A DNA stretch of 64,000 nt, taken from NCBI GenBank assembly GCA_046529715.1, contig CP134881.1:918803-982802 (forward strand), given 5' to 3'. Positions 2,913-62,339 of this stretch are shown one piece after another; within the stretch, counting starts at the first letter, position 1, and each line of letters begins with the position of its first letter. This DNA is from Mycoplasmatota bacterium WC44. GTDB lineage: Bacteria; Bacillota_I; Bacilli_A; MAG-NZ. The position numbers and the translations under genes are program-made. The notes beneath the pieces are model-generated. The model ran no database searches and was not told the DNA's origin. It saw only the letters and a list, made by a program, of their open reading frames with translations.

Positions 2913-2925
2913 AGGGGGATAAAAA

Positions 2926-4233: not shown

Positions 4234-4248
4234 AAAGGAGAAATGGAT

Positions 4249-4551: not shown

Positions 4552-4611
4552 TAAATTTGTCAAAAATTACTGTTCATCATGAGCTAAAGTTAATATGCAA
4601 GTATAAGACTA

Positions 4612-4638
4612 AAAGTGATTATTAATGATCACTTTTTA
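4612..4638 (+). terminator. rho-independent terminator
   Basis: Hairpin agtgat/atcact followed by a T-run. Confidence 0.5.
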
Positions 4639-4933
4639 ATTTCTACTGTTAAGAGATACGTGTATTCTAGGTTATTGGTATTACATGTTTATATAAATAT
4701 AAATATATATTCAAAATAAAGTTAAACTATATTTAAAGCGTTTATTTCCCTTAAAATCAATAAATATGTCTATTTCTTGCAACTGTAGACTTAAAAAAAA
4801 TTAACTACTTATAGGTATATTTTTATATTTTCTTTATGATAGCGTTTTTAAGTTGTTATTTAACACAAAATAATATACCCTTAATAGGGTCTATGTAGAA
4901 AAATGTATAAATTTAAACAATTTAGAGGTGTTT

Positions 4934-14439: not shown

Positions 14440-15626
14440 TATGAATCCTCCTTTAATTGAAAGTTAATCTCATCAACTGCATTTAGTGAATTATCTTTTG
14501 CTTCTATATTATCTTTTCCTGTAGCCATAACATATCCAATTCTATCCCCCATGTGATATGGTTCTACTACATGATTTCCCTTTCTAGGTTTAACGTAAAC
14601 TTTTAAAACACCTTCACTATTTAAAGCTGAATTTTTTCCAGTTACTTTTTCTAATACACCAGAAATATTAGATGTTAAATATTTATTGAAAATATCTTTT
14701 TTGACGATTGGTACAGTAAAATCCATACCTAGATAGAATTTTACTACTTGTTCAATATAATTAGTATCAGTTGCGTACTTAATAATATGGCTAATACTTC
14801 CACCAGCAGCTCTAGGGTTGATCTCAATTAATTTGCATGACTCTTCATCTTCCCTTACTTCAATGTGAAAATCACCATTTTTAAAATTAAGTTCGTCTAT
14901 AATGATTTGAATCATACTCAGTTCACTTTCCGAAATAATTGTGTTTTTATCTAGGGTGTAACCAACAACTATAAAAGTGTTGTTTTTTGTTAACAATACA
15001 TCCTGCTTTATTTTAATAATAGAAATAGGTTTACTATTTCGAACGAATACCTCAATTAAATACTGATCCTTATCTATATAATCTTCTATGAAAACATCAT
15101 GTGATTTGTAAAATTTTGTTGAAATGTCCTCTATTGAATTAATAAGTTTTACATCTCTAGATGCTGTGGATATTCTTTTCTTAATGATTAGTGGAAACTT
15201 TAATACATGTACATTATCATCTTTTAAAGTTATTTCCTTAAAGTATGGTGTAAATGGATAGTTCCGTAATTTAATTCTTGTCAATAACTTATCCTCCATT
15301 ACTCCTATGGCATTTGATTTGGATGGATTTTTAGTATATTTATCCCTTAATCTAGATGCAAGTGTACTGTAACCATCTATAAAGCTTAATATTGTTCCTA
15401 TTTTAAAACAGTCATTCATCTCTGTATCTAGATATCTGCATATATTTTTATAGTTAAGTTCTTCGATATATATCATATCGTGAACATCTGTATATTCTTC
15501 CCTTTGTTTTAGTTGCTTTTTATTATTAGTTAACAAAATTGTGTACATATTTAATTCTTCGCTAGCCCTGATTGCTTCCCTACTTGTACCAGATTTAGCT
15601 GTTTGAATAAAAATTATCACCTTCAT
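14439..15626 (-). CDS. ATP-grasp domain protein (L-amino-acid-ligase/carboxylate-amine-ligase-like)
   Basis: EINPRAAGG ATP-grasp block with a pre-ATP-grasp N-terminal domain. RBS GAGGTGA, ATG at 15626 (the track starts at GTG 15635). Confidence 0.6.
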   Translation of the reverse strand: MKVIIFIQTAKSGTSREAIRASEELNMYTILLTNNKKQLKQREEYTDVHDMIYIEELNYKNICRYLDTEMNDCFKIGTILSFIDGYSTLASRLRDKYTKNPSKSNAIGVMEDKLLTRIKLRNYPFTPYFKEITLKDDNVHVLKFPLIIKKRISTASRDVKLINSIEDISTKFYKSHDVFIEDYIDKDQYLIEVFVRNSKPISIIKIKQDVLLTKNNTFIVVGYTLDKNTIISESELSMIQIIIDELNFKNGDFHIEVREDEESCKLIEINPRAAGGSISHIIKYATDTNYIEQVVKFYLGMDFTVPIVKKDIFNKYLTSNISGVLEKVTGKNSALNSEGVLKVYVKPRKGNHVVEPYHMGDRIGYVMATGKDNIEAKDNSLNAVDEINFQLKEDS

Positions 15627-15808
15627 AAATATCACCTCAATATATAATATGAAATAATAAAATTCAGGTGTAGTAATAATTAACTAGTATTTTCTAATTA
15701 ATAATGTAACTAAAAGCAGTGAAATAAAGGTTATAATAAACTTTATTTTTTCTAAGAATGTATATAAAAAAGTATATTTCGTAAAATAATTTTACAAGGA
15801 GGATTAAT

Positions 15809-33354: not shown

Positions 33355-33382
33355 TAAAAAGCGAAATTTTTCGCTTTTTTTA
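33355..33382 (+). terminator. rho-independent terminator
   Basis: aaaagcgaaa ... tttcgctttt hairpin followed by a T-run. Confidence 0.8.
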
Positions 33383-33494: not shown

Positions 33495-34829
33495 ATGATG
33501 TTTTATAAAAATAAATATTTACTTAAAAAAATTATAGCACTTTTACTAGTGTTTTTTATGTTTTCTTTCCTAGGGACTTTATTTACTAACTTGAATTTAC
33601 TTAGGTACTCCTTAATAGTAAATTCAAATAGATTAATAGGGTTAAATCTAATTCTTTTTTCTTCCCTTTTAATAATAAAAGATATTACAAATGTTAAAGT
33701 CAAGAAAAGATTATTTCTTAAATATATAATTCATATATTGCTGGTTGTTGTAGCGATACTTGGCATTATTAGTGTATTATCTGCAGATAGTTCATACTTT
33801 GCATTTTATGGGGTGAATGATAATTATTTTGGGATAAATTATAATGATGGATACTTAACATTACTAGCTTACTTTGGTTTTTTTATGGGTGCATTTTCTT
33901 TAGAAAAGTCCACACAGAAAAAGATTGTAATCATCTGTTCTAGTTTTTCATATCTAGTTGTATTAATTGGTTTATGTAGTACATTACTTCATAAGATGAT
34001 TCCTATCTCTGATCTAATAAATATTAAAAGATCTTTATTCTTTAATTCAAACCATTATGGTTACTTCTTAACTATAGCTTTATTATTATCTATGTATAAT
34101 TTGATAAAAGACAATAAGTTAAGAATTTTCCATTTGATTGGATTTACACTCTTATCTGCTTCTTTAATATATTCAAACTCAAGGGGAGCTCTCTTATCGA
34201 TTAGTATAACGATGATTACATATATTGTTTTTATAAATATAAATAAGAAATTCAAGAATAGATTTAGTTATATTCCTATCCTGGTATTAGTCCTAACTAC
34301 AATATTAGTAAACGTAATAGACGAGAATATATCAACTACTGGAAGGTATCAATCAGTCATTGATGATGCTGAAAATATTATAAGTAATCCAGATGGAAGC
34401 GATACGTCAGGTAGTGGTAGATGGAAGTTATGGAAAGATGGATTCATTTTGTTTACTCAAGAACCATTGATTGGTCAAGGGATAAATGGTGTCTACTACA
34501 CAGTTGAAAGTGATGACTCATACTTTATTAGGGTTCATAATGAGTACTTAGAATATGCACTTACATACGGTTTATTTGTATTAGTTTTATACTTATTTGT
34601 TATTGGAATCATAGGTATGGAATTTCTGACTAATTTACACGATAAAAGTTTTTTTGATTTTATGTTAGCTCTTGCAATATTCGCATATTTGCTATCTGCT
34701 ATTTTTGGTAACACAAAACCGTACACAACACCTTACTTTTTCATGTGTTTAGGTTTTTTAAATAGCAGTTCTTCATTGAATAAAAATATAAATATATATG
34801 ATGAAGGAGAAAAAAATGAAGTACATTGA
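33495..34829 (+). CDS. O-antigen ligase/polymerase-like (Wzy_C) polytopic membrane protein
   Basis: ~12 TM. NSRGALLS loop motif typical of Wzy_C. Confidence 0.5.
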   Translation: MMFYKNKYLLKKIIALLLVFFMFSFLGTLFTNLNLLRYSLIVNSNRLIGLNLILFSSLLIIKDITNVKVKKRLFLKYIIHILLVVVAILGIISVLSADSSYFAFYGVNDNYFGINYNDGYLTLLAYFGFFMGAFSLEKSTQKKIVIICSSFSYLVVLIGLCSTLLHKMIPISDLINIKRSLFFNSNHYGYFLTIALLLSMYNLIKDNKLRIFHLIGFTLLSASLIYSNSRGALLSISITMITYIVFININKKFKNRFSYIPILVLVLTTILVNVIDENISTTGRYQSVIDDAENIISNPDGSDTSGSGRWKLWKDGFILFTQEPLIGQGINGVYYTVESDDSYFIRVHNEYLEYALTYGLFVLVLYLFVIGIIGMEFLTNLHDKSFFDFMLALAIFAYLLSAIFGNTKPYTTPYFFMCLGFLNSSSSLNKNINIYDEGEKNEVH

Positions 34830-35436
34830 TTTAAGTCACGAGTTTAGAGAAGATATGACGCTTTATCCAGGCTCATCTAAACCTATAATAGAACAAGTAA
34901 GTAATATTGAGACTGATGGTTTTAATCAGTTAGAATTATCTTTTACAAATCATATAGGTACCCATTTAGATGTTCAAGCACATGTGATTAAAGGTGGTAA
35001 AAAAATAACAGATTATGATATTTCTAGTTTTCAAGGTAAAGGAAAAATATTTGATTGTAGAAATGTAGAAGAAATAGGTAAAGATGTTTTTGAAGATAAA
35101 CTTACAGATGTGGATTTTGTACTTATTTGGACTGATTATGGTAAAAGATTTTATAATAAAGATTATATGGATAACTACCCGGTTCTAAATAAAGAAGGAA
35201 TTGATTATATTATTTCAAACAATGTTAAAGGAGTTGGAATAGACTATATTTCAGTTGACCCAATTAATACTTCTGATATGTTTGTTCATAAACAGCTTTT
35301 AAGGAATGATGTTATTATTTATGAGAACTTATGCAACTTACATCTTTTAGAAAATACTGAATTTAAGTTTATGGGATTCCCTATACAAATTTCAGGAGAC
35401 GGAATACCAGTAAGAGCAGTTGCTGAAATAAAATAA
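34816..35436 (+). CDS. cyclase-family protein (arylformamidase/kynurenine-formamidase-like)
   Basis: HIGTHLDVQAH is the HxGTHxDxPxH motif. RBS GAAGGAG, ATG at 34816, overlapping the upstream gene by 14 nt. Confidence 0.55.
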   Translation: MKYIDLSHEFREDMTLYPGSSKPIIEQVSNIETDGFNQLELSFTNHIGTHLDVQAHVIKGGKKITDYDISSFQGKGKIFDCRNVEEIGKDVFEDKLTDVDFVLIWTDYGKRFYNKDYMDNYPVLNKEGIDYIISNNVKGVGIDYISVDPINTSDMFVHKQLLRNDVIIYENLCNLHLLENTEFKFMGFPIQISGDGIPVRAVAEIK

Positions 35437-35605
35437 ATTGAAAATATTTGAAATATGGAATATTATTACAGCGAATAATCTTTGATACTTATAGACTTTT
35501 TTAGACAAAATATGCTATAATTAAAAGTATTATTTTCTTTTTATAAAATATAAAAAAATAAGTACTAATTAACGTAACTATAACGCTATTAAGGACGTGA
35601 ATATA

Positions 35606-36580
35606 TTGAACATATTAGTATCTGGTGGAGCTGGATTTATTGGGTCTTTTACAGTAGATAGATTAATTAAAGATAATCATAATGTAGTTGTGGTTGATAG
35701 TTTGATAAATAGTAATATTGACTCTGTAAATAAAAGGGCTACTTTCTATAAAATTGACATAAGGGATAAAGAAGGATTAACACAAGTTTTTAGAGAAAAT
35801 GAAATTGATGTAGTATTACATTTCGCTGCACTAATCTCTGCCCCTGAAAGTATGGATAAACCATATGAATTTTTTAGTGTTAATACTTATGGAACATTAA
35901 CTTTACTTGAAGTAATGAATAACCATGGTGTTAAAAAGATTGTATTCTCATCTACAGCAGCAGTTTACGGCTTATTAGATAAAGGTGATGATGTAATATT
36001 CGAGGATGATGAAGTCTTGCCAATCAATATTTACGGAGAGTCTAAACTACAAGCGGAAAAAATTATTGAATGGTCAAGTAAAAGCAAAGGAATAGATTAT
36101 ATTATATTTAGATATTTTAATGTTGCTGGACATTTAAAAAGAGGAATTAATCCAATTGAAAGAAAAGCTTTAATACCTTCAGTTATGAATGTAGCATGTG
36201 GTATAAAAGATAAATTATTAGTGTATGGTGATGACTATAACACAAAAGATGGCTCATGTATAAGGGATTATATACATGTTGACGATTTAGTAAATGCACA
36301 TGTTTTAGGATGTTCTATGTTGGTAGCAAAAACTACTGATAATGGAATTTATAATTTAGGTAATGGTCATGGTAACACTGTATTTGAAGTAATTAATACA
36401 GCAGAAAAGGTGATTGGAATACCCATACCATATGAATCTGCTCCAAGAAGAGTTGGTGATCCTGTGATATCTGTTGCTTCTTCAAATAAAGCAAAAGACA
36501 AACTAGGGTGGATACCTAGTAGAAATTTAGAAGAAATAATTAATGATGAATGGAAAGAAATAAAAAAATATAAATCTTAA
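35606..36580 (+). CDS. galE: UDP-hexose/UDP-HexNAc 4-epimerase (GalE/PelX-like SDR)
   Basis: GGAGFIGS Rossmann motif and YGESK catalytic dyad. RBS AAGGA, TTG start at 35606 (the track starts at GTG 35597). Confidence 0.75.
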   Translation: MNILVSGGAGFIGSFTVDRLIKDNHNVVVVDSLINSNIDSVNKRATFYKIDIRDKEGLTQVFRENEIDVVLHFAALISAPESMDKPYEFFSVNTYGTLTLLEVMNNHGVKKIVFSSTAAVYGLLDKGDDVIFEDDEVLPINIYGESKLQAEKIIEWSSKSKGIDYIIFRYFNVAGHLKRGINPIERKALIPSVMNVACGIKDKLLVYGDDYNTKDGSCIRDYIHVDDLVNAHVLGCSMLVAKTTDNGIYNLGNGHGNTVFEVINTAEKVIGIPIPYESAPRRVGDPVISVASSNKAKDKLGWIPSRNLEEIINDEWKEIKKYKS

Positions 36581-36603
36581 TTAATACATTAAGGGGGCGC
36601 GGT

Positions 36604-37791
36604 ATGAAAAGGAATAGTATAGTTTTCATGATTGAAATTATAACTGTATCATTGATAATATCTTTATTCTATTTCTTGTCGAATAGTTTTAAAGACTTTT
36701 CTTCAATTACCCCTCATCCAATGTATGTAATAGTAGCAGTTTTGGCTATGAGAAATGGAAATGTTGTCTCAGTTATGATTGCTACATTGGTTAGTTTTAT
36801 ATATATATCCTTTTATTTCCTTGAGTATCATACGTTTGTTGGATTTATAACTGATTATAATAATGCTATTAATATATCTTTTACTTACTTAGCTGCCATA
36901 ATATTTGGAATAGGTTATGAAAGGTATATGGATAAGATAAATTCACTATCAAGTGATTTAGAAATTAAAGATGATGATTTAAAAGATTTAAAAGAAGAAC
37001 ATTTGAATATAAAAAAATTATATAACGATTTGAAAATACAAATAGTAAACTCTGATAACTCAATACTAAATTTATACGAAATAGCGAAGAAATTTAGTTC
37101 TTTTGATAAAGAAGAACTTTTCACAGAATTATTAGGTGTTCTATCAAAGTTCTTAAAAACAGAAAAGGTATCAATATATACTTATCAAAATGATGGTTTC
37201 TTACGTCTAAAACTAAAAAACAGTGAACATAAAGTACCTTATTCAATAGACACTTTGAAGGACAGTATATTTCAACAACTTCTTAGTGAGAAAAAACCAT
37301 TAAGAAAGATTGATACTAGTAATAAAGACTTTCCTATAATGTCAGCACCCGTAATTTTGAATGATGAAATAATAGCTATAGTTAATGTTGATGATATGGA
37401 GTTCTCTGATGCCAATGAATATTCATTCCAAATCTTTAAAATGATTATAGATTGGTTACAAGATGGTCTTACAAAAGTTAATCATTTACTTGATGATGAT
37501 ACTGATGAATTCTATTATAAGACAATTATAATGAAGCCGGATTATTTTATGGAAAGAGTAAAATCGGAACAAAGTAGAAAAGAAAGATATGATTTAGATT
37601 ATGTATTATTAAGTTTTAAGATACCTAATTTCAACTCATATGAATTAAATGAGAAGTTGATAAATACATTCAGATCGGTAGATGTGTTTTCTTATGATAT
37701 TGAGACAAATATGTTACAAGTATTGTTTCCAGCAACATTAAGTAAATATAAAGAAAAAATGAAAGAAAGAGCTAAGACATTATTTGAATAG
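36604..37791 (+). CDS. pelD: PelD-like membrane protein (TM, coiled coil, GAF/degenerate GGDEF-like region)
   Basis: N-terminal TMs. It sits in the pelD position before pelE/pelF/pelG. It carries an RxxD-type motif (RKID). Confidence 0.5.
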   Translation: MKRNSIVFMIEIITVSLIISLFYFLSNSFKDFSSITPHPMYVIVAVLAMRNGNVVSVMIATLVSFIYISFYFLEYHTFVGFITDYNNAINISFTYLAAIIFGIGYERYMDKINSLSSDLEIKDDDLKDLKEEHLNIKKLYNDLKIQIVNSDNSILNLYEIAKKFSSFDKEELFTELLGVLSKFLKTEKVSIYTYQNDGFLRLKLKNSEHKVPYSIDTLKDSIFQQLLSEKKPLRKIDTSNKDFPIMSAPVILNDEIIAIVNVDDMEFSDANEYSFQIFKMIIDWLQDGLTKVNHLLDDDTDEFYYKTIIMKPDYFMERVKSEQSRKERYDLDYVLLSFKIPNFNSYELNEKLINTFRSVDVFSYDIETNMLQVLFPATLSKYKEKMKERAKTLFE

Positions 37792-37809
37792 GAATAAGGA
37801 GGGATTGGT

Positions 37810-38775
37810 ATGCTTTCTATAGCTTTAGTTATCATGTTTATTTCAAGTATTATAGAATTATACTTTTTTACAGTAGCACTAGTCTCAGGAGAATCTTTAT
37901 TCTTATACTCAACAATTCATATAGTATTAATTATTAATTACTACCTTATGAACTTATATTTTATAAAAAGTAAAAAAGAAGAAAAGCCTATATTCATAAC
38001 TTTTTTTCTTCCTGGATTAGGTTTTTTAATTGTATTTACTATTGAGTTTTTTACAGCTATAACTAAACGTAAAACAGAAGAAATAAATATGGTTACAATA
38101 TTTGAAATACTTGAAGATACAAATGAATATAACTTCTTAAGTGAAGATAAAGTGTTATCTTACAGTGATAATATGAAGTATTTAGATAACGATGATCAAC
38201 TATCATTATTATTTGATGTATTAGAAGACGGGACTTATGATAAATTAAAAATTCTTAAACAAGGCGCAGAAAATGAAAATCAAGTAATTAAATATTACTC
38301 ATCTGTATATCTAAGTTCTCTAGCGAATCAATTTGAGAATGAATTATTTAGATTATCCGATAAATTTACTAAAACAGATAACTTAATTGATTTAAAAAAT
38401 TTGATTACAACATATGATTCATATTTAATTAGTGGTTTATTAAAAGATGATATGTATGATTTTTTTAACAAAAAAAATATACATTTCTTAGAAATGGCAA
38501 TTGAAGCTGAAATCCAGGTGATTAAAAACTCAGTTAGATTAGTAAATGCCTACTTAAACGATGAACAATATGATAAAGCAATAAAAATGATAGAAAAAAA
38601 TAAGATTACTCACCCTGCGGATCTTGAGATGAGAATATTAGAAATAAATTATTATGCTAAATATAACAATAATGATAAAATTACAAAATGTGTTAAAGAT
38701 ATCTATGACAAATTCTCTTACATTCCACCAAAAGAGTTATCGATACTTAAATTTTGGAGTAAAGAAGTCGCATGA
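37810..38775 (+). CDS. pelE: PelE-like membrane/TPR protein
   Basis: Two N-terminal TMs plus a helical-repeat C-terminus. Size and position match PelE. Confidence 0.45.
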   Translation: MLSIALVIMFISSIIELYFFTVALVSGESLFLYSTIHIVLIINYYLMNLYFIKSKKEEKPIFITFFLPGLGFLIVFTIEFFTAITKRKTEEINMVTIFEILEDTNEYNFLSEDKVLSYSDNMKYLDNDDQLSLLFDVLEDGTYDKLKILKQGAENENQVIKYYSSVYLSSLANQFENELFRLSDKFTKTDNLIDLKNLITTYDSYLISGLLKDDMYDFFNKKNIHFLEMAIEAEIQVIKNSVRLVNAYLNDEQYDKAIKMIEKNKITHPADLEMRILEINYYAKYNNNDKITKCVKDIYDKFSYIPPKELSILKFWSKEVA

Positions 38776-40190
38776 TAGTATGTTTACTAATTGAGGGGTC
38801 TTACCCTTATGTTGTGGGTGGAGTGTCAGGATGGGTTAATAGTATTATAAAAGCTATGCCAAATGTAGAGTTTAAGATACTTTCAATAATGCCTTCGGAA
38901 ACTGGTAAGTTAGAAATCAAATACAAATTGCCAGATAACGTAATTGAACTAAAAACAATATACCTTGATGGTTATATTGATAACCAAAATGGTGATTATG
39001 TTAATCAAGTAAGATTATCTAAAAAAGAAGAAAAAGAATTAAGTAAATTACTACATTTTGATTTAGATATAGACTTATCTAAAGTTCTTGAAATAATGGA
39101 TAATAAGAAGTCTGTAAGAAAAGTAGAAAATTTCACTAGAACCAAATTCTTTTATAATATTTTAAAAGAAAAATATTTTAAGAATTATAGTGATTTGAAT
39201 TTTAATAAGTATGTATGGACATCAAAAGGTATGTATAATCCATTCTTATTTGTATTAGATTCTGATATACCAAAAGCAGATATATATCATTCAGTTTCTG
39301 CAGGTTATGCAGGATTGATTGGAGCAGTAGCTAAGGTTAGATTTGATAAGCCGTTTATCTTATCAGAACACGGTATATATACAAGAGAAAGACAAGAAGA
39401 GATTGTAAAAGCTAATTGGATTAAAAAAGTATTTAAGATGATATGGATAGACTTTTTCTTCTATGTGTCAAATATTGGGTACAAATACGCTGATAAAATA
39501 ACTTCTCTTTTCCATGACGCAAGGAAATTTCAAATTGTTTATGGTGCAGAAGAAGAAAAATGTATAGTTATATCTAATGGAGTTAACGTTGAATCTTTTG
39601 ATATTCAAAAAAAAGATCACAAAAGTTTCAATATAGGGTTCATTACTCGTGTTGTACCAATTAAAGATGTTTTAACGGCTATAAGAGCATTTTACCTAGT
39701 AAACAAAAAGATGGATAATGTAAATTTTTACATCATTGGTCCAACCGATGAAGATGAAAAATATTATGAACAATGTTTAAAACTTACGGAAACATTAGGC
39801 TTAAACAATGTTGTCCATTTTACAGGAACTGTAAATATAAAAGATTATTTACCTGAGACAGATGTTGTTATATTATCGTCTTTATCTGAAGGACAACCAC
39901 TGGTACTATTAGAAGCTATGTCAGCGGGGATACCATGTGTTACAACTGACGTAGGATCATGTAAAGAAGTACTTAATGCAGATGCTTCGGACTTAGATAA
40001 ATGTGGAATTATATATGAACCAACTAACTATGAGCAATTAGCATCGAAATTAATATATTTATATGAAAATATAGATTTAAGAGAAAAAATGGGTGCTAAT
40101 GGTAAGGAAAGAGCTAATTCTTTATATAATTATAAAGATATGGTTAATAAATATTTCAAACTTTATGAAGATGTAATAAAGAAATATTAG
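38772..40190 (+). CDS. pelF: PelF, a GT4-family glycosyltransferase
   Basis: N-terminal IVCLLIEGSYPYVVGGVSGWVN and LSEHGIYTRERQEE closely match PelF. E-x7-E GT4 motif in EGQPLVLLEAMSAG. Confidence 0.85.
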   Translation: MIVCLLIEGSYPYVVGGVSGWVNSIIKAMPNVEFKILSIMPSETGKLEIKYKLPDNVIELKTIYLDGYIDNQNGDYVNQVRLSKKEEKELSKLLHFDLDIDLSKVLEIMDNKKSVRKVENFTRTKFFYNILKEKYFKNYSDLNFNKYVWTSKGMYNPFLFVLDSDIPKADIYHSVSAGYAGLIGAVAKVRFDKPFILSEHGIYTRERQEEIVKANWIKKVFKMIWIDFFFYVSNIGYKYADKITSLFHDARKFQIVYGAEEEKCIVISNGVNVESFDIQKKDHKSFNIGFITRVVPIKDVLTAIRAFYLVNKKMDNVNFYIIGPTDEDEKYYEQCLKLTETLGLNNVVHFTGTVNIKDYLPETDVVILSSLSEGQPLVLLEAMSAGIPCVTTDVGSCKEVLNADASDLDKCGIIYEPTNYEQLASKLIYLYENIDLREKMGANGKERANSLYNYKDMVNKYFKLYEDVIKKY

Positions 40191-40198
40191 GAGTTATA

Positions 40199-41662
40199 AT
40201 GGCAGGAATAAGTATAAGACTAGAAAAATTAATAAAAGATGAAAGTTATATATCAAATTTTACTGGTTATTTAATCACGACATTTGCAGTGGCTGGTCCA
40301 TGGATCATAACTATTATTGTCTTGTCAATATTTTCATCGCTATTTTCTGCTGAGCTTAGAGTATCAGCAGATTTTCAGCTGTTTAATGCAACAGTAGTAT
40401 ACGGATTCATAGGTTCACAGCTTATAACTGTACCGTTTCAATTCATTGTTACGAGGTATATAGCAGATGAAATATATCGAAATAGAACTGACTTTTTAAG
40501 AGCTACTTTTACTGGAATGTTAAAGGTGATTTTTGTAATTGGAGCAATTTTATCAGGCTTCTTGTTTTTTAGATCAGATTTACCATTATATTATCAGGTG
40601 CTAGCATCATACTTCTTAATTATGGTCTCATTTGTATGGATATCTTCATTTTTTATCTCAGCACTTGGTGATTATACTTATCTTGGAAAAAGTTTTATCG
40701 TAGGAAGTATTGTTGGATTTGTTACATTCGCTCTTGTAAGCCAAATATCTTATCTTTTTTCTTATAGTGTTACTATAACAGGTCTATTAATGATGGTTAG
40801 TTCTATGACTACAATTTTTATAATGATTTGTTACAAATTTATGACAAGTATTGATAAATCTAATCAATGTCAATTTGATTTTATAAGGTCATTTTCCAAC
40901 TACTCATCACTGTTTTATATCGGTGTATTCTATATCTTAGGTTTATGGATTGATAAATTTCTAATGTGGGGTAGCAAAATATCTCTAAATGTTTTAGATG
41001 TCCTTTATGTAGCACCAGCATATGATCAAGCTTCTTTTTTAAGTAATTTACTCATCATCCCAAGTAATGTATTGTTCTTATCACTTGTAGAAGTTGAATT
41101 TATAAAATTTTATAAAGATTATTTCAAAAAAACAGCAGATGGAACATATATTGAGATTGAAAGAGCTAGAATACTTATGAAAAAAGAACTTCTTAGGAAG
41201 ATACTTCAGATTTTTATAATTCAATCAGTAATAGTTATGTTTATATACGTCTTTACATATGATATTTTTAGTATTTTAAAATATGATGTCCTGTCGAAAA
41301 TGATTTTTACTAATCTATTACCAGGATTAACATTCTATATTTTTGTACTACTATCAATAATAATGTTTCTTTACTTTGAAGAAAGAATGAAAGCATTGTT
41401 CACTTCACTAGGTTTTTTTATAGCAAACTTAAGTTTTACTTTATTTTATATAAACCAAGGACATGAATCTTATGGAAAAGGGTTTACTATAGCATCGATA
41501 GTTGTTTCTATATATGCTTTGTTTGCACTGATTTCTATGCTTAATAATGTTAACTATAGATTATTTGGAGTTAAAACTGTAACCACTAAGAAAAGAAAGA
41601 AATATTTTGAGACTATAGCTGATAATCTAAGGATTAAGAAAGGAGTTGAACTAGATGAATAA
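40199..41662 (+). CDS. pelG: PelG, a polytopic (MOP/MATE-like) Pel export membrane protein
   Basis: N-terminal MAGISIRLEKLIKDESY matches PelG MAGIGFELRKIL..DSY. ~12 TM. Confidence 0.8.
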   Translation: MAGISIRLEKLIKDESYISNFTGYLITTFAVAGPWIITIIVLSIFSSLFSAELRVSADFQLFNATVVYGFIGSQLITVPFQFIVTRYIADEIYRNRTDFLRATFTGMLKVIFVIGAILSGFLFFRSDLPLYYQVLASYFLIMVSFVWISSFFISALGDYTYLGKSFIVGSIVGFVTFALVSQISYLFSYSVTITGLLMMVSSMTTIFIMICYKFMTSIDKSNQCQFDFIRSFSNYSSLFYIGVFYILGLWIDKFLMWGSKISLNVLDVLYVAPAYDQASFLSNLLIIPSNVLFLSLVEVEFIKFYKDYFKKTADGTYIEIERARILMKKELLRKILQIFIIQSVIVMFIYVFTYDIFSILKYDVLSKMIFTNLLPGLTFYIFVLLSIIMFLYFEERMKALFTSLGFFIANLSFTLFYINQGHESYGKGFTIASIVVSIYALFALISMLNNVNYRLFGVKTVTTKKRKKYFETIADNLRIKKGVELDE

Positions 41663-43274
41663 GAAAATAACTGTATTAGTTTTTATACTTCTAAGTATTT
41701 TTATAGCCTTAACATACGAAAGTTCAACTATTAATCCTTTAATAGTGAATCATCCTGATTATAGCAATGACATGGTAGAAGAGTTATTGATTACTACATA
41801 TCACTCTGATAAAAATAAAGGTGTATATTCTTATGATGAACTAGTAGCGAATGAAGGGTACAATGTCGATGGTAAATCTATTAAAATTGATGTTCTTCTT
41901 CAAGAAATAAATGGTGATAAAGTATGTACAAGTTGTTACGGATATGGTCTAGTTACTAGTAATACTAAGCTATCATTAAGAGGGCAGTCGTCAAGAAAGG
42001 AAGAACAAAAGTCATATAAATTAGTAATTAACAGTGACATTGATTCCTTCAAGGGTGAACACATACTAAATTTAAAAAAACACGCTGAAGATAACACTCG
42101 AATTAGAAATAAATTGATCTTTGATTTAATTAAAGACATTCCAAATACACTTGTTCCAAACACTAAATTTGTACACTTAACATTAAGAGATTTAACTAAC
42201 GGAACAGGTAAGTTAGAAGATTTAGGTCTTTTTACTCATCATGAACAAGTTGATAACGATTTCTTTAAAAGGAGAGGTCTAGACCATAAAGGTAATTTAT
42301 ATAATATAAATTTCTTTGATTTTTATAGATATAAAGATGTAATTATGATGAAAGATGACCCTTTATATAGTAAAAAAGCATTCGAAGAACTATTAGAAAT
42401 TAAAGGTTCAAGTGATCACTCAAAATTAATTGCCTTATTGACTGCACTTGATTCACCTTTAATACCAATTAACCAAGTAATAAATAAATACTTTGATCGT
42501 GATAATTATCTTACTTACTTAGCTGTGAATATGATTGTGGATAATGTCGATGCATCGGCAAGGAATTTTAAATTATATAGACCATCAGATAGTGAGAAAT
42601 GGTATTTTATCTTTTGGGACTATGACAAAACTATAAATTTAGGATCTAATTCAAACGACGCATGGAGAAAAGGAATTCATCTTTATATGAATGATAATCT
42701 TCATAAACAGTTTCTAAGTGTAGAAAGCAATAGACAGGAACTTATGCAGAAAATGGAAGAACTAAAACCTTACTTTAGTGAAGAAAAAATAACCAATCTT
42801 CTGAACGAATATAAACCTGTACTAGAGTATTATTTAACAGAAAGCGTTGATGCTGAATATAGTGATTTAACTTATTCAGAAGTAGAATCTGAAATGAGTC
42901 AATTTTATGATAATATCTTACTTAATTATGATGTTTTCTATGAATCTATACTTGTTCCTAAAGCTGTATTTATAGGTCAGTTTGAGAAAAAAACAAGATA
43001 TCATATCTTAACATGGAGTAAATCATTAGATTTCAATAATGAAAAAATACTATATGATGTAAAAATAGCACGTGATCCTTTATTTGAAGATATTGTTTAT
43101 GAGGAAATAGGTCTAAGAGATAATCAAATTGTTTTATTTGATTTTGACCCAGGTAACTACTTTGTTTCAGTAGACTCCATCAACGAAAGTAATTATAGAC
43201 AACCAGCTTTTGACAATTATACTGATAGACAAAAAATAAAATATTTTGGTGTCAAGAATATCGTTGCTGAGTAG
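41655..43274 (+). CDS. cotH: CotH-family (atypical kinase-like) protein with an N-terminal signal/TM
   Basis: CotH-type blocks (NFKLYRPSDSEKWYFIFWDYDKT). The start overlaps the pelG stop by 8 nt. Confidence 0.65.
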   Translation: MNKKITVLVFILLSIFIALTYESSTINPLIVNHPDYSNDMVEELLITTYHSDKNKGVYSYDELVANEGYNVDGKSIKIDVLLQEINGDKVCTSCYGYGLVTSNTKLSLRGQSSRKEEQKSYKLVINSDIDSFKGEHILNLKKHAEDNTRIRNKLIFDLIKDIPNTLVPNTKFVHLTLRDLTNGTGKLEDLGLFTHHEQVDNDFFKRRGLDHKGNLYNINFFDFYRYKDVIMMKDDPLYSKKAFEELLEIKGSSDHSKLIALLTALDSPLIPINQVINKYFDRDNYLTYLAVNMIVDNVDASARNFKLYRPSDSEKWYFIFWDYDKTINLGSNSNDAWRKGIHLYMNDNLHKQFLSVESNRQELMQKMEELKPYFSEEKITNLLNEYKPVLEYYLTESVDAEYSDLTYSEVESEMSQFYDNILLNYDVFYESILVPKAVFIGQFEKKTRYHILTWSKSLDFNNEKILYDVKIARDPLFEDIVYEEIGLRDNQIVLFDFDPGNYFVSVDSINESNYRQPAFDNYTDRQKIKYFGVKNIVAE

Positions 43275-43284
43275 GGGTGGATTT

Positions 43285-43998
43285 ATGAAAAGTGAATACA
43301 GATATGAATATAAGTATATAGTTGATGAAAGAAAAAATATTTTATTAACTAATCACATAAATGAGTTAATGAAAGTTGATGATAATATAAAATCTGGCAA
43401 TAAGTATCACACTAGAAGTTTATATTTTGATGATATTGAAAATTCAGCATACTTTAGCGTATTGAGTGGTGAGTATAAAAGGACTAAGTATAGAATTAGA
43501 ATTTATAATTGGAATGATAATGAAATATATTTAGAAGAGAAAAATAAAGAAGGAGAATTCGTCTATAAAAATAGGTCATTGATATCTTTGGAAGAATATA
43601 ATAAAATTATAAAAGGCGATATTTCTTTTTTGTTGAAAAAGTGCGAAATGTGTAGAAGATTCTACATAAAACTTAGAAATGAATTGCTTAAACCTAGAAT
43701 AATAATTGATTATTATAGAAAGCCGTTTTATTTAACTCATTCGGACTTAAGAATAACCTTTGATTTTGACATAACAGTGATTATGTTTAAAAATAATTTC
43801 TTTAACAAAGACTCTAGAGGTTTTAGAATATCAGAACCTAATACATCAATTCTGGAAGTTAAATATAAGAAGTTTCTTCCGACTGTTTTTAGAAAACTTT
43901 TTTCAGGATTTGATATAAGTAGAACAAACTATTCAAAATATTATTTATCTTTTGAATATTTACGTAATTATAAATTAATGAATTGGGATGTGAAATAA
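43285..43998 (+). CDS. VTC-domain (CYTH-like polyphosphate-polymerase-domain) protein
   Basis: YEYKYIV (ExK-like) N-terminal strand. RBS AGGGGTGGA, ATG at 43285. Confidence 0.55.
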   Translation: MKSEYRYEYKYIVDERKNILLTNHINELMKVDDNIKSGNKYHTRSLYFDDIENSAYFSVLSGEYKRTKYRIRIYNWNDNEIYLEEKNKEGEFVYKNRSLISLEEYNKIIKGDISFLLKKCEMCRRFYIKLRNELLKPRIIIDYYRKPFYLTHSDLRITFDFDITVIMFKNNFFNKDSRGFRISEPNTSILEVKYKKFLPTVFRKLFSGFDISRTNYSKYYLSFEYLRNYKLMNWDVK

Positions 43999-44672
43999 TG
44001 GATTCTATTAAACTATTTTTTGAGCAATTTACAAGTGCATCATCTTCACAAACAATAGGAATTTTGGACATGCTTTTTATACTAGCTCTTACTTTCTTAC
44101 TAGGGCTATTTGTAACATTTATTTATAGGCTTATTTACTCTGGTGTATCAATGAGTTATAAATTTTTAACATCATTATTAGTAGTGTCTTTAGTAACCAC
44201 AATGGTTGTATTGACAATAAGATCTAACATTGTTGTTTCATTAGGTATGGTAGGGGCACTTTCGATAATAAGATTTAGAACACCATTAAAGGAACCATTG
44301 GATTTAGCTTTCATGTTTTGGGCAGTAGCTATTGGTATAACAATGGGAGCTTTATTATTTGATATTGCTCTATTATTTTCATTATTTATTGGTGTTGCAT
44401 TAACTATATTTACAAAAATAAAGAATACATCACAGGTTTATTTATTAATCATCGAATACAATAATAAAAGTATGACTTCAAGAGCAGTTGATGATGAATT
44501 AGCTAAAATTAAATATGTTCTTAGATCAAAAAGAGTTACTGACAATATGGTTGAATTAAATTTAGAAATCACTCAACTTAAAATGAAAACTGATATCATC
44601 AATAATATTGGGAAAATAGATGGAGTTGAGAGTGTTTCTCTAATTGGATACAATGGAGATTATTTAGGATAA
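43998..44672 (+). CDS. DUF4956-like small membrane protein
   Basis: 3-4 TMs plus a soluble C-terminal domain. ATG overlaps the VTC stop (TAATG). Position matches the known cotH/VTC/DUF4956 neighbourhood. Confidence 0.5.
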   Translation: MDSIKLFFEQFTSASSSQTIGILDMLFILALTFLLGLFVTFIYRLIYSGVSMSYKFLTSLLVVSLVTTMVVLTIRSNIVVSLGMVGALSIIRFRTPLKEPLDLAFMFWAVAIGITMGALLFDIALLFSLFIGVALTIFTKIKNTSQVYLLIIEYNNKSMTSRAVDDELAKIKYVLRSKRVTDNMVELNLEITQLKMKTDIINNIGKIDGVESVSLIGYNGDYLG

Positions 44673-44769
44673 AAATAACAACATTAGATTATAATACCTT
44701 TAAATTACACACTAAATAAAAAACAATGTTAACATTTATTTAGATAGTAATTTGGAGGTATTTTTTATT

Positions 44770-45033
44770 ATGGGAAAACATGTAAGAAGGGATTATATTT
44801 TTAAAAAGAGAATTGTAGAGGAAGTTTTGGGTGGTAAGTACACTTATTCTGAAGCAGCTGCTAGGTATGGAATTAGCAATAGAGGTACAATTTCTATTTG
44901 GAAAAAGAAATATCTTGAAGGTACTCTAGGAATAGATAATCGAGGGAAAAGAAATCAAGAGGTAACCAATGAAGAAATCTTAAAAAAGTGCTATGCTCTA
45001 CTGATGAAAATCCGTTCCAAGCAACAAGGATAG
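44770..45033 (+). CDS. IS3-family transposase OrfA (HTH)
   Basis: RBS GGAGG, ATG at 44770. Helix-turn-helix. Confidence 0.8.
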   Translation: MGKHVRRDYIFKKRIVEEVLGGKYTYSEAAARYGISNRGTISIWKKKYLEGTLGIDNRGKRNQEVTNEEILKKCYALLMKIRSKQQG

Positions 45034-45881
45034 AGAAGTATCAAATAATAGATGGTTTGAAACACATATATCCAGTTCAAAGATTATGTAGAGTTCTATT
45101 AATCACTAGACGAAGTTATTATTGGTGGCTTAATAGAGGTAAACCATTAGCTAATAACATTAATCAAAAAGACTTAGAACTATTCACAGTAGAGCACTTT
45201 AATACAAAAGAAGTTTATGGCGTTTTAAGACTAAAGTACCATATTCAAAGAAAATACGGATTTATATATAACCACAAGAAAATAAGACGTTATAAGCGAC
45301 TGTTCAATCTAGATACAATAACACGAAAAAGACGCCCTTTGTATCTTAGGACAACAAAAAAAGAGAGCCACTTAAATATGGCTCCCAACGTGCTTGATTG
45401 TAACTTTACCTCAGATAGCCCCTACCAAAAGTTATCGACAGATGTAAGTTATATCAAATGCACAGACGGTACATTGTACCTATCAGCTGTTAAAGATCTC
45501 TTTAACAATGAAATTGTATCATATTCAATATCAAATAGAAATGATGGAGAGCTAGTTAAAAAGACATTAGAGCAAATTCCTAAAGGGAATGGGATTATAC
45601 ACTCAGATCAAGGTGGATTATATTTTAGTTTACTCTATAGAATAAAACTAAAAGAGTTGGGATACACGCGTAGCATGTCAAGACGTGGTGCTTGTTGGGA
45701 AAACTCACCGATTGAAAACTGGTTCTCACAGTTAAAGGAAGAACACTTAAGACCAATAGGTAAAAAGACAATGAAAGTAACGAAACAGGAGATAAAAAAA
45801 TACATCCAATGGCATAACCATGAACGTATTCAAAAATCTTTAAACTACTTGACTCCTGTTCAGTATTTACAAAATGTATAA
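44988..45881 (+). CDS. IS3-family transposase OrfB (DDE/rve integrase), expressed by -1 frameshift from orfA
   Basis: HSDQGGLYFS and CWENSPIENWF blocks. Confidence 0.8.
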   Translation: MLCSTDENPFQATRIEKYQIIDGLKHIYPVQRLCRVLLITRRSYYWWLNRGKPLANNINQKDLELFTVEHFNTKEVYGVLRLKYHIQRKYGFIYNHKKIRRYKRLFNLDTITRKRRPLYLRTTKKESHLNMAPNVLDCNFTSDSPYQKLSTDVSYIKCTDGTLYLSAVKDLFNNEIVSYSISNRNDGELVKKTLEQIPKGNGIIHSDQGGLYFSLLYRIKLKELGYTRSMSRRGACWENSPIENWFSQLKEEHLRPIGKKTMKVTKQEIKKYIQWHNHERIQKSLNYLTPVQYLQNV

Positions 45882-46019
45882 GTTTTTTATTTAGTGTGTA
45901 CTTGACAGGTAGTAGTATCTTAATAGTTGTTTTTTTTACGTTCTTAAAAAGGTAAAACTATGTAATAGTTGTTTTCTATAGTATAATTATATGGAACAAT
46001 TATCCAAGGAGGAAAAGAT

Positions 46020-55981: not shown

Positions 55982-56782
55982 TTAAGTTAATCTCAATCTA
56001 TCTGTATTATAAAATTTTATCCAATCAATAACAAGTTGTATATATTTTTGTAATGATTTGATATCATAACTATAGAGAGTTTCACGTTTGAGAGACGCAT
56101 GGAAACTTTCTATAGGTGCGTTATCTTGTGGGCAGCCTTTACGGCTCATGGAAATACTAATTCCGTGTGTCTCACAGATAACTTTGTAAATAGTGGACGT
56201 ATATTGGACTCCTTGATCGGAATGAATGATCAATCCAGATACGTCTTTTTGTTTATCTAGCGCTTCTTTAAGTGTATCCATAACTAATTCATTATCATTT
56301 CTATAACTAATTCTTGAAGCAATTATGTTTCTTGTATGTAAATCCATTATAGTTGACAGATAGGCTCTGTTTCCATTTTGTACTAAATATGTAACATCAG
56401 TAACCCACTTTTGATTATGTTTTGTTGTATTAAAGTTTCTGTTAAGTAAGTTTGGATAAGTGTTATTCTCGATATACTCTTTGTTGAAATGTTTCTTATA
56501 TATCTTTTGATATCTAACTCTTATTTCAAATTTTCGCATTATTCTAAGCAATTTCTTATGGTTTATTACCCAACCATGCTTTTCCTTTATAGCCTTCTTC
56601 AATCGTCTATAACCATATAATTGATTGGTATCTTCAAATACTCCAATGATTATATTGTAATCATCTACATCTGGATCTTTTCTGTTCTTGTACTTATGAA
56701 ACGTTTTTGTACTAATATCTAAAACGTCACAGAGAGTATTTAGTTTATATCCAAATTCTTTTCTTGCATATTTGATGAACAC
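55982..56782 (-). CDS. IS3-family transposase OrfB (DDE/rve)
   Basis: IIHSDQGVQYTS and CPQDNAPIESFH blocks. Confidence 0.8.
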   Translation of the reverse strand: MFIKYARKEFGYKLNTLCDVLDISTKTFHKYKNRKDPDVDDYNIIIGVFEDTNQLYGYRRLKKAIKEKHGWVINHKKLLRIMRKFEIRVRYQKIYKKHFNKEYIENNTYPNLLNRNFNTTKHNQKWVTDVTYLVQNGNRAYLSTIMDLHTRNIIASRISYRNDNELVMDTLKEALDKQKDVSGLIIHSDQGVQYTSTIYKVICETHGISISMSRKGCPQDNAPIESFHASLKRETLYSYDIKSLQKYIQLVIDWIKFYNTDRLRLT

Positions 56783-57060
56783 AATCTTTTCATACGTTGA
56801 TCCTTGAGGAAGGCTTGGTACTTTTTTAGGATTTCATACTTCTCCTCATAATTAATGTTTACGTTTTTAGGTCTACCCTTCTTAGTGTCAAATCTATTTC
56901 CATGTCTATATTGATAAACCCAATTCTTAATAGTATTAACTGATATTTCATACTTCCTAGATAAATACCCAGATGATTTACCATCTTCAATTTTTTCTTT
57001 AATAACTTTAAATTTAAGCTCAAGACTATACTTTCTAAATTTTTGTCCTTTACTAGCCAT
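56740..57060 (-). CDS. IS3-family transposase OrfA (HTH)
   Basis: Probable ATG at 57058-57060 (the track starts at an upstream GTG). Confidence 0.7.
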   Translation of the reverse strand: MASKGQKFRKYSLELKFKVIKEKIEDGKSSGYLSRKYEISVNTIKNWVYQYRHGNRFDTKKGRPKNVNINYEEKYEILKKYQAFLKDQRMKRLCSSNMQEKNLDIN

Positions 57061-57359
57061 ATAAAAATGCACCTCTTTTTAGTAGGATAACAGTTTTTTA
57101 TTTCCTGTCTACTAAATGGGGTGCATATTCTAATTCCCGTAGGTTTTTTTATATTAATTTCTTCAAAAAGTCTAAAATCAATATATATTTCTAAAATCAT
57201 CTACACTTAATTAAGTTTATTAAGTATTTTTATCTTCATTTACTATTTTTTTATATAATTTAAAATATATTTCAATTAATTGACCATAATCGTAATTAGT
57301 GAAAAGTAGCTTATTTATCTATAATTGTCTTACACCGGTGATGTTTGAAAGGAGATAGT

Positions 57360-61208: not shown

Positions 61209-62339
61209 ATGAAGAAAATATTAATCACTTTTCTATTCACTGTAATATATGTATATTCGTCATTAAGTGTGAATGCAAATACAGAAATTATTGAAGATGG
61301 GCAAAGTAGTATCTTAATTGAAATGACTACAGGGAAGATTTTATATCAGAAAAATGCTCAAGAAATGAGAGCACCAGCAAGTATGACTAAAGTAATGACA
61401 ATGATACTTATATTAGAAGCGATAGAGAATGGACAATTTTCTTTTGATGATTTGCAAACAATAAGTGAAAATGCTGCAAGTCTTGGGGGATCGCAGATAT
61501 ATTTAGAAGCAGGAGAAGTGATGACAGTAAGAGATTTATTCAAATCAGTGGCGATATCAAGTGCCAATGATGCGGCAACTGCTCTAGCAGAAAAAGTAGC
61601 AGGTAGTGAGAAGGTATTTGTTGATTTAATGAATCAAAAAGTAAAAGAATTGGGATTATCATCAACACAGTTTAAAGATCCTACAGGTTTATCAGATGAA
61701 GGTCACTATACTAGTGCATATGATATGGCAATTATGGCACAATACTTACTTACAACTTATCCATACGTAACTGAGTATACTAACACTTACGAAGATTATG
61801 TTAGAGATGGTGACTTTTGGTTAGTTAATACTAATAAATTAGTTAGAAATGATGATATCGACGGGGTTAAAACTGGTTGGACCGAAGCTGCAGGATATTG
61901 TCTAACTGCAACAAAATTCAGTGATTCAATGAGAGTAATTGGAGTGATAATGGGTAGTACAAATACCAAGATTAGAAATGCAGAAATGCAGACTTTATTG
62001 AATTATGGTATGAGTAATTTTAACCTAACGCAAAAAATGGAAGAAGGATCTATTGTTAAGAGTGAAACTAATATAAACTTAGAACCTACAGAACTTAACT
62101 ATAGAATAAAATACCCAGTTAACATTGTATTAAGAAATGGAACTGAAATGGAAGAAGTCAAATATAAAATAGACATTAATTATGATAATCTAACATCAAA
62201 TAAAGATATTGGGAATCTATCAGTTTTCTATAACAATGAGATATATCAGGTTATTCCATTATATTTAGAAGAAGAAGTTGAAAAAACAAGTTACTTTGGT
62301 TTACTTAAGAAAGTACTCAAGTTAATGTTAGCTGTATAA
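61209..62339 (+). CDS. D-alanyl-D-alanine carboxypeptidase (DacF/DacB-like serine-type)
   Basis: Signal peptide. SxxK in PASMTK, SxN in SSAND, KTG in KTGWT. Confidence 0.8.
   Translation: MKKILITFLFTVIYVYSSLSVNANTEIIEDGQSSILIEMTTGKILYQKNAQEMRAPASMTKVMTMILILEAIENGQFSFDDLQTISENAASLGGSQIYLEAGEVMTVRDLFKSVAISSANDAATALAEKVAGSEKVFVDLMNQKVKELGLSSTQFKDPTGLSDEGHYTSAYDMAIMAQYLLTTYPYVTEYTNTYEDYVRDGDFWLVNTNKLVRNDDIDGVKTGWTEAAGYCLTATKFSDSMRVIGVIMGSTNTKIRNAEMQTLLNYGMSNFNLTQKMEEGSIVKSETNINLEPTELNYRIKYPVNIVLRNGTEMEEVKYKIDINYDNLTSNKDIGNLSVFYNNEIYQVIPLYLEEEVEKTSYFGLLKKVLKLMLAV

Follow-up and report, generated by a model that had tools for sequence, protein, structure and literature searches.

The 64-kb stretch of DNA analyzed here (the window; AT-rich, ~28% GC) comes from Mycoplasmatota bacterium WC44 and contains eight genes which, we propose with moderate confidence, form an intact operon for a synthase-dependent Pel-type exopolysaccharide working without the PelA deacetylase. 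The eight open reading frames (ORFs) are arranged head to tail on the plus strand at 35597/35606-44672 in the order galE, pelD, pelE, pelF, pelG, cotH, VTC and DUF4956, and all of them are present where a first-pass annotation of the window had placed them. Judged by its sequence, the locus is intact, with all eight ORFs full length, their motifs kept and ribosome-binding sites found at each junction of the operon. A search of a 5.8-billion-protein collection revealed PelG relatives of at least 50% identity in four clusters besides WC44, plus one short fragment. The deacetylase-less order pelD-pelE-pelF-pelG-cotH-VTC-DUF4956 was found in three further lineages, L001 (a JGI metagenome), L002/L003 (GCA_002919055.1) and L086/L087, whose proteins share 39-47% (PelD) and 50-58% (PelG) identity with those of the window. 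The synteny check recommended by the first-pass annotation gave a positive answer for pelG-cotH-VTC-DUF4956, and the retention of the pelA-less gene set with invariant catalytic and motif residues argues for purifying selection.

The genes are closely spaced, with 23 nt between galE and pelD (containing AAGGGGG), 18 nt between pelD and pelE (containing AAGGAGGG) and 8 nt between pelF and pelG, and the pelE stop overlaps the pelF start by 4 nt. The start codon of cotH lies within the 3' end of pelG (an 8-nt overlap, with AAGGAG ahead), and the VTC stop and DUF4956 start share TAATG; both overlaps had been correctly reported. The overlap also claimed between cotH and VTC is probably not real, as it arises only if TTG 43246 is the VTC start. 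With the ATG at 43285, which is preceded by GGGGTGG, the two genes are 10 nt apart. In L001, L002 and L086, cotH and VTC do overlap. We infer that the eight genes are expressed as one transcript. A consensus scan identified a candidate sigma-70-like promoter (TAGACT-18-TATAAT with TG; 35492..35521, plus strand) in the 160-nt gap upstream of galE, but the region contains 94 promoter-like sites against 92 expected from shuffled sequences, so this candidate is weak evidence; promoter and terminator scans are uninformative in such AT-rich DNA.

Pel core proteins and the absence of pelA

PelF and PelG are the most readily recognized components of the operon. PelF (38772..40190, plus strand) is a glycosyltransferase of the GT4 family, the presumed polymerase, which matches NF038011 with 379 bits (cutoff 100) as well as DUF3492 (PF11997) and Glycos_transf_1 (PF00534), and has the E-x7-E motif EGQPLVLLE at residues 373-381. 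PelG (40199..41662, plus strand) is a polytopic exporter with 11 detected hydrophobic segments, which matches PF16933 with 329 bits over profile positions 1-452 of 452 and is named 'exopolysaccharide Pel transporter PelG' by NCBI. The N-terminal strings of both proteins and the PelF motif, on which their original identification was based, are present in the window. The first gene of the operon (35606..36580, plus strand; TTG start, alternative GTG at 35597) encodes a UDP-glucose/UDP-GlcNAc 4-epimerase of the short-chain dehydrogenase/reductase (SDR) family, GalE, which scores 339.3 bits against the TIGR01179 equivalog (cutoff 262.3). Its NAD-binding GGAGFIG motif (residue 7) and catalytic YGESK motif (residue 143) are intact, and GalE is apparently a separate, active enzyme. 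An SDR gene lies 5' of the operon in two of the three related lineages, occupying the galE position in L001 and L002 (and in Tepidibacter hydrothermalis L004), with none in L086. The matches to NF038011, PF16933 and TIGR01179 support the earlier assignment of a Gram-positive-type Pel locus with an adjacent GalE.

The PelD and PelE ORFs have no match in Pfam or NCBIfam and had been guessed from size, order and topology, a guess upheld by fold comparison and profile alignment. The PelD ORF (36604..37791, plus strand; 395 aa) is identical (100%) to the NCBI protein RJG79_05150 and comprises a transmembrane (TM) region, a coiled coil, a GAF domain and a short, degenerate GGDEF-like domain. In an AlphaFold2 model (pLDDT ~80 in the cytoplasmic part), its top Foldseek match among 350,000 PDB chains was Pseudomonas aeruginosa PelD (4etz_B, E 1.2e-7), with an alignment of 253 columns covering GAF and GGDEF. 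Alignment by hhalign with PelD of Gram-negative-type pel loci gave 99.7% (E 9e-27), and a five-sequence PelD profile ranked PelD first among PDB sequences, although at a non-significant E of 0.7. The RxxD motif of the window protein (R357-S-V-D360) aligns with the RxVD of proteobacterial-type PelD and is kept in 31 of the 31 monoderm-type PelDs compared. PelD is therefore predicted to be a membrane GAF/degenerate-GGDEF receptor retaining the RxxD site for cyclic di-GMP (c-di-GMP). A profile search of 1.84 billion representatives returned 1698 PelD relatives, many of them 700-740 aa long and matching via their C-terminal 390 residues; both long relatives scanned have an N-terminal epimerase domain. 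Whitfield et al. called such long proteins 'extended PelD'. PelE (37810..38775, plus strand) has at least two N-terminal TM helices and a helical (TPR-like) cytoplasmic domain. It aligns with PelE-position proteins of Gram-negative-type loci (hhalign 99.3%, E 3e-20, 307 columns) and is matched over its full length by the Tepidibacter PelE-position protein (tblastn, E 5e-17).

The CE26 de-N-acetylase PelA_DA, a DUF2194/DUF2334-like enzyme which the Gram-positive pelDEA(DA)FG type encodes in the operon, is missing from the WC44 operon. The 18-nt gap between pelD and pelE and the pelE/pelF overlap leave no room for pelA inside the cluster. Searches of the 64-kb window by tblastn found nothing with four PelA_DA queries (best E 0.33) or with one GH114 query (best E 0.049), and the DUF4832 protein of L088 had no match at E<=1. 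Likewise, Pfam scans of ~50 ORFs across the window detected no CE4, DUF2194, DUF2334 or GH114 family. On either side of the locus the window includes further DNA, 35 kb upstream and 19 kb downstream, so the case of a same-operon pelA just beyond its edge, which the first-pass annotation had named as a refutation, does not apply. The DUF4832 hydrolase gene, located 3' of DUF4956 in the published accessory architecture, is also missing; an insertion sequence (IS) of the IS3 family lies there instead. DUF4832 is absent at the operon end in L001, L002 and L086 as well. The loss of the deacetylase had been correctly spotted by the first-pass annotation, and it is part of a conserved, recurrent architecture beyond what that annotation knew.

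The CotH, VTC and DUF4956 proteins

The last three genes of the operon (hereafter the trio) encode a CotH-like kinase, a VTC-domain protein and a DUF4956 membrane protein. CotH (41655..43274, plus strand) matches PF08757 with 175 bits and has an N-terminal TM/signal-anchor helix, a CotH kinase domain and a C-terminal FN3-like domain. It is related to Bacillus cereus CotH (5jd9) by sequence (E 4e-11) and by fold, the AlphaFold2 model (pLDDT 88, pTM 0.86) superimposing with a TM-score of 0.80 (E 4.7e-17). In this model the TM helix spans residues 3-21 and the FN3-like sandwich residues 440-539. In the alignment, Asp299 and Asp322 fall on the aspartates of NFD and WDYD in B. cereus CotH; mutation of the equivalent D228 and D251 inactivates the Bacillus subtilis kinase (PMC7821199). 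Across 17 pel-linked CotH homologues K119, N297, D299, N304, D322 and D324 are invariant. The kinase domain is predicted to face outward with all catalytic residues kept, and its kinase activity is putative.

The VTC-domain protein (43285..43998, plus strand) matches PF09359 with 110 bits and has no hydrophobic segment, which fits a cytoplasmic, triphosphate-tunnel protein resembling polyphosphate polymerases. Single-sequence PDB searches with VTC and DUF4956 produced no match. A profile of 17 VTC homologues, however, matches the catalytic domain of yeast Vtc4 (3g3q, E 2.9e-7). Invariant, alternating charged residues (R6, E8, K10, R66, K68, R70, R72, E84, K86, K88, R145, R156, E191 and K193) are present, with R/K/E positions aligned opposite Vtc4 RQTTKY, HRLRWY and ERK, the strands that we take to hold K200, R264, R266 and K281. 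The protein is predicted to be a triphosphate-tunnel enzyme with tunnel residues intact, and polyphosphate synthesis by it is putative.

DUF4956 (43998..44672, plus strand) has an MgtC-like TM region and a C-terminal soluble domain. It matches PF16316 with 47 bits and, weakly, an MgtC/SapB NCBIfam model (E 1.5e-6), and shows three clear hydrophobic segments with a possible fourth and a GMVGALSI-RFRT block invariant among homologues. Nothing meaningful was found with a DUF4956 profile in the PDB. The MgtC-like build fits the MgtC-plus-ACT description of Streptococcus intermedius SIR_1592. In the surveyed loci the VTC and DUF4956 genes are always adjacent and often overlapping. This constant pairing of a VTC gene with a gene for a small polytopic membrane protein recalls the yeast VTC complex, in which the Vtc4 polyphosphate polymerase, whose catalytic domain the bacterial protein matches, is coupled to a membrane channel. 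In contrast to the yeast complex, the bacterial VTC protein itself lacks both an SPX and a TM domain, and DUF4956 is unrelated to the Vtc1-type TM domain; polyphosphate export is putative.

Distribution of the architecture and its chromosomal context

Linkage of pel genes to CotH/VTC/DUF4956 as such is already known, and the first-pass annotation, which held the fusion to be undescribed, was mistaken on this point. Whitfield et al. (2020) described 161 Gram-positive pel loci with a pelDEA(DA)FG core, and genes for CotH, a polyphosphate polymerase, DUF4956 and DUF4832 contiguous with this core in streptococci and clostridia; bifidobacteria have the accessory group with a diguanylate cyclase/phosphodiesterase gene in place of DUF4832 (PMC7112168). 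The accessory group correlates with an epimerase-extended PelD, and the authors proposed that protein phosphorylation tunes Pel output and cautioned that divergent loci may make a non-Pel polymer (PMC7112168). In S. intermedius (mBio 2025), pelD, pelE, pelA_DA, pelF and pelG are each essential for Pel and aggregation. Each accessory gene of this organism (SIR_1591-1594) was deleted, and the loss of SIR_1594 (CotH) or SIR_1592 (DUF4956) alters the Pel level and reduces aggregation in sputum medium by half. The DUF4832 protein SIR_1591 has hydrolase activity, and the polymer is predominantly GalNAc (N-acetylgalactosamine) (PMC12345266). The CE26 activity of B. cereus PelA_DA is essential as well, and the enzyme is a single-pass TM protein modelled as docking on PelG (PMC13254593, JBC 2026). 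Trio-bearing pel loci without PelA_DA are not described in the Pel literature found, and the published pel-locus papers list neither Mycoplasmatota nor Tepidibacter and Alkaliphilus, the class C taxa looked up by name.

For comparison, a PelG-anchored scan of one genome per species, seeded by PelG N-terminal peptide patterns, produced 80 loci, which were labelled using hidden Markov models seeded from the window, its relatives and Tepidibacter. Contig ends truncate several loci (L012, L022, L026, L073 and L085), two of which, the Dethiobacter pair L022/L026, are uninformative. Class A is the published type with both deacetylase and trio, extended pelD-E-A_DA-F-G-cotH-VTC-DUF4956-DUF4832 (L088, L092 and L090, whose contig ends past VTC). 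The window type, class B, has the trio without deacetylase, (galE)-pelD-E-F-G-cotH-VTC-DUF4956, and comprises the window, L001, L002/L003 and L086/L087. Class C, [GH114]-cotH-VTC-DUF4956-pelD-E-F-G, likewise has the trio and no deacetylase and includes 12 complete loci of the genome collection (L005-L010, L013, L015-L017, L064 and L068) plus L091, with L012, L014, L022 and L023 as partial or variant loci. Its hosts include Thermoanaerobacteraceae, Halanaerobiales, Acidaminobacter, Fusibacter, Clostridium homopropionicum, Peptostreptococcaceae, Phosphitispora and Sphaerochaetaceae, and no recurrent deacetylase family was found among the flanking ORFs of 11 class C loci. Class D has the deacetylase and no trio, pelD-A_DA-E-F-G-GH114 and variants (L004, L018-L021, L024, L025, L027, L028 and L030). 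Class E is the trio alone (L089, no deacetylase).

The window shares with class A the order pelG-cotH-VTC-DUF4956, the pelG/cotH overlap (8 nt in the window and L088, 4 nt in L092) and the CotH build also seen in S. intermedius SIR_1594, with an N-terminal TM helix, kinase domain and FN3-like domain. However, class A has both PelA_DA and the DUF4832 hydrolase, which the window lacks, and a ~700-aa PelD with a degenerate N-terminal epimerase domain instead of a 395-aa PelD and a separate GalE. In addition, the window PelD keeps the RxxD part of its GGDEF-like domain, absent from streptococcal PelD according to Whitfield et al. (PMC7112168), and the window PelG is only 23-24% identical to class A PelG and occupies a different tree branch. 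A closer core is found in the B. cereus ATCC 10987 type, pelDEA(DA)FG with flanking pelA_H and galE, of which Tepidibacter hydrothermalis L004 is the nearest example. The window and L004 have in common a short PelD (GAF, degenerate GGDEF, RxxD), PelE, PelF, PelG and an SDR epimerase directly 5' of pelD, with 36% (PelD) and 32% (PelG) identity. This type carries a CE26 PelA_DA and a GH114 hydrolase and no trio, whereas the window carries the trio and neither enzyme. Class C resembles the window in combining the trio with a short PelD without PelA_DA. Beyond the clade of the window itself, the nearest CotH (38%) and PelG (up to 38-39%) are those of class C. In contrast to the window, in which the trio is 3' of pelG, the class C trio is located 5' of pelD, a GH114 gene is often present, and GalE is usually absent from the cluster.

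In a neighbour-joining tree of PelG (200 bootstraps), the window clade is monophyletic (200/200) and, with moderate support (121-133/200), sister to a group of intermingled class C and class D loci; the PelG of class A groups with L030 (189/200). The window CotH is about as far from its class C counterparts (36-38%) as from those of class A (~36%). These relationships suggest that the trio moves as an accessory module and has joined different pel cores. Where the flanking sequence is long enough to tell, each locus of the PelG clades closest to the window has the trio or PelA_DA, and none has both; in this limited sample the trio stands in place of PelA_DA within the window's wider clade. Strict mutual exclusion as a general rule was rejected, as both occur in L088, L090, L092 and the published loci. 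The trio also recurs beyond pel, as had been anticipated by the first-pass annotation. In L089 (10001-13095) cotH-VTC-DUF4956 has no pel genes within 10 kb, and Clostridium perfringens NELoc-2 has a pair of VTC genes, both with a gene for a membrane protein of 222-226 aa behind them, and then CotH, next to genes for a HEAT-repeat protein and a 'chitin synthase' of family GT2 (PMC2879425). The size and predicted location of the 222-226-aa proteins suggest that they are DUF4956. Both cases run counter to the S. intermedius paper, according to which the trio is confined to pel loci.

Several other features were observed in the surveyed loci. A conserved ORF of ~500-540 aa is found directly 3' of pelG in class C loci of Acidaminobacter, Fusibacter and Peptostreptococcaceae (L007 11457-12953, L009 11493-12998, L015 11457-12956 and L064 11373-13001), with no Pfam match for the L007 and L064 copies; it may be a further pel accessory protein. 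Many Gram-negative-type loci (L038 6644-8530, L042, L050, L052, L055-L057, L066 and L082) have an ORF of ~630-670 aa between pelE and pelF, which in L038, the only one scanned, encodes a HEAT-repeat protein. Tandem duplicates of PelA_DA and CotH in L090 (1455-5183 and 8179-11767) are an example of module duplication, and module decay is exemplified by L009, with cotH split in two ORFs (3217-4907), and L011, with only cotH and pelF fragments.

The 3' boundary of the WC44 operon is formed by an IS3-family element (44686..45920, plus strand; rve/HTH_21 domains), which does not belong to the system, starts 13 nt past the DUF4956 stop and is followed by an MMPL transporter gene. Its orfA (44752-45033) and orfB (44988-45881) are frameshifted, and its 39-nt imperfect terminal inverted repeats are 85% complementary with no obvious target duplication. 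Deletion of a DUF4832 or pelA gene by this element was considered and rejected: IS3 is absent at the operon end in L001, L002 and L086, and the operons of these IS-free relatives stop at the same gene, DUF4956, so the element took nothing away. A second IS3-family element (55982-57200, minus strand) has an end sequence related to that of the first (3 mismatches, 57093-57111). Upstream of galE, an O-antigen-ligase-like (Wzy_C) gene overlaps a 'putative cyclase'/arylformamidase-like gene by 32 nt; the pair (33495-35436) is preceded by a hairpin terminator (33356-33379) and separated from galE by the 160-nt gap mentioned above. The pair is not a member of the conserved unit and was rejected as part of the system, since it is absent from all three related lineages. 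These relatives (L001, L002 and L086) share an operon neighbourhood of PMSR, dCMP deaminase, Lon_C, LspA, an RluD-like protein and a long HU-domain protein ... ferritin, RNase HII and MutS2, and the position of the WC44 operon elsewhere, beside an IS, suggests relocation or horizontal acquisition.

The remaining genes of the window include a D-Ala-D-Ala carboxypeptidase (Peptidase_S11; 61209-62339) and an M23 peptidase (12208-13215), which together suggest a peptidoglycan wall in this Mycoplasmatota-labelled lineage, unlike classical mollicutes. There are also three tandem paralogues of YheC/D-like ATP-grasp proteins (466, 440 and 435 aa; 215-4233, plus strand), and a fourth elsewhere adjoins an L-amino-acid-ligase-like ATP-grasp gene (13417-14439 and 14439-15635, minus strand), an unusual concentration of peptide-ligase-type enzymes.

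Proposed Pel biogenesis without PelA and competing explanations

In the proposed mechanism, GalE would supply a UDP-hexose or UDP-HexNAc 4-epimer, providing UDP-GalNAc for the polymer. PelF would polymerise UDP-GalNAc under PelD/c-di-GMP control, with PelE as a TM/TPR scaffold and PelG as exporter of the chain, and the α-1,4-GalNAc-rich polymer would leave the cell essentially un-deacetylated. CotH is translationally linked to PelG, resembles PelA_DA in having one TM helix, has a predicted outward orientation and replaces PelA_DA in ~20 loci; we therefore propose that the trio is an integral module which handles or modifies the polymer, or a surface or machinery protein, outside the cytoplasm at the outlet of PelG, the site taken by PelA_DA in systems of the B. 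cereus type. Phosphate chemistry may be performed by VTC and DUF4956 at the cytoplasmic face of the membrane, and CotH may transfer phosphate onto the nascent polymer or onto a surface or machinery protein.

Several observations weigh against this proposal. Pel production requires PelA deacetylase activity in P. aeruginosa and B. cereus (PMC13254593), and in S. intermedius PelA_DA is essential with only partial phenotypes for trio mutants (PMC12345266). Trio and PelA_DA coexist in the published architecture (L088, L090 and L092), which together with the S. intermedius phenotypes indicates that the trio does not generally substitute for the deacetylase in function. The sample behind the either/or pattern was chosen by PelG N-terminal peptides and includes several loci cut by contig ends, and the deacetylase search covered the 64-kb window, so that an unlinked CE4 or CE26 gene may be encoded elsewhere in the WC44 genome. 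As to c-di-GMP control, no GGDEF/EAL protein and no diguanylate cyclase was detected among the ~50 window ORFs scanned.

In the main rival explanation, WC44 would have an ordinary Pel system, with a CE4- or CE26-type deacetylase encoded elsewhere acting in trans and the trio serving an accessory or regulatory role as in streptococci. We regard this as possible, though less probable. Several CE4 genes are usual in Firmicutes-like genomes. Deacetylase activity is essential in all three systems studied, class A loci hold the trio together with PelA_DA, and S. intermedius trio mutants shift the Pel level without abolishing Pel, in keeping with the proposed regulation by protein phosphorylation. 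However, no such enzyme is encoded in the 64 kb of WC44 or within ~10 kb of the ~20 trio-only loci, nor does one recur in their flanks, and all characterised systems encode the deacetylase in the operon and are thought to dock it on the export machinery. If the enzyme were still required, one would not expect this linkage to have been lost repeatedly, in several separate lineages. Deacetylation would be irrelevant if the PelDEFG-like machine made a non-Pel polymer with another sugar or linkage, an unlikely alternative for which one can cite the low identity (~23-38%) of PelF and PelG to those of loci resembling characterised types, and the same caveat for divergent loci in Whitfield et al. (PMC7112168). 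Against it, PelF scores far above the PelF equivalog cutoff, an intact GalE gene lies next to pel, as it does in loci of the B. cereus type, and class C loci keep a GH114 hydrolase of the PelA_H kind, pointing to an α-1,4-GalNAc-type substrate. That the locus is a decaying remnant which lost pelA, acquired an IS at its end and makes no polymer seems very improbable. The IS3 element so close to the last stop codon, the chromosomal context unlike that of relatives and the existence of degenerate relatives (L009 and L011) are compatible with decay, but eight full-length ORFs with conserved motifs and ribosome-binding sites are not what a remnant would show, and the pelA-less gene set is kept at 39-58% identity in three IS-free lineages.

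Within the preferred explanation of a deacetylase-independent Pel operon, a more specific and doubtful suggestion is that VTC plus DUF4956 does in bacteria what the VTC polyphosphate synthase/translocase does in yeast, feeding a CotH that phosphorylates poly-GalNAc. Polyphosphate or another phosphoryl donor would be made at the inner membrane face and passed outward, where the exposed CotH, its TM helix docked on PelG, would use it on the emerging chain. If so, trio-only loci would yield an anionic phospho-polysaccharide instead of cationic deacetylated Pel, a matrix charge switch repeated in Clostridia, spirochaetes and the Mycoplasmatota clade of WC44.

Three aspects of these results appear to be new: a conserved architecture without pelA_DA and DUF4832 that combines a short PelD with an apparently active GalE encoded by a gene of its own; the presence of this architecture in a lineage labelled Mycoplasmatota and apparently possessing a cell wall; and the class C family (at least 13 loci in Clostridia, Halanaerobiales and Sphaerochaetaceae) together with the either/or pattern of trio and PelA_DA. 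Two statements in the literature are corrected, as the trio is neither confined to pel loci nor tied to an epimerase-fused extended PelD. The finding is of relevance to exopolysaccharide specialists and does not concern a new kind of system. The question can be tested in cultured hosts, including Clostridium homopropionicum DSM 5847, Fusibacter sp. JL216-2, Phosphitispora sp. TUW77 and possibly WC44. Current accounts of Pel biogenesis treat PelA deacetylation as obligatory, and it is a drug target in P. aeruginosa. The scattered, conserved pel loci without deacetylase, each with the trio, suggest that the PelDEFG machine can persist without this enzyme, and trio-only loci offer a natural genetic contrast for finding the function of the uncharacterised trio.

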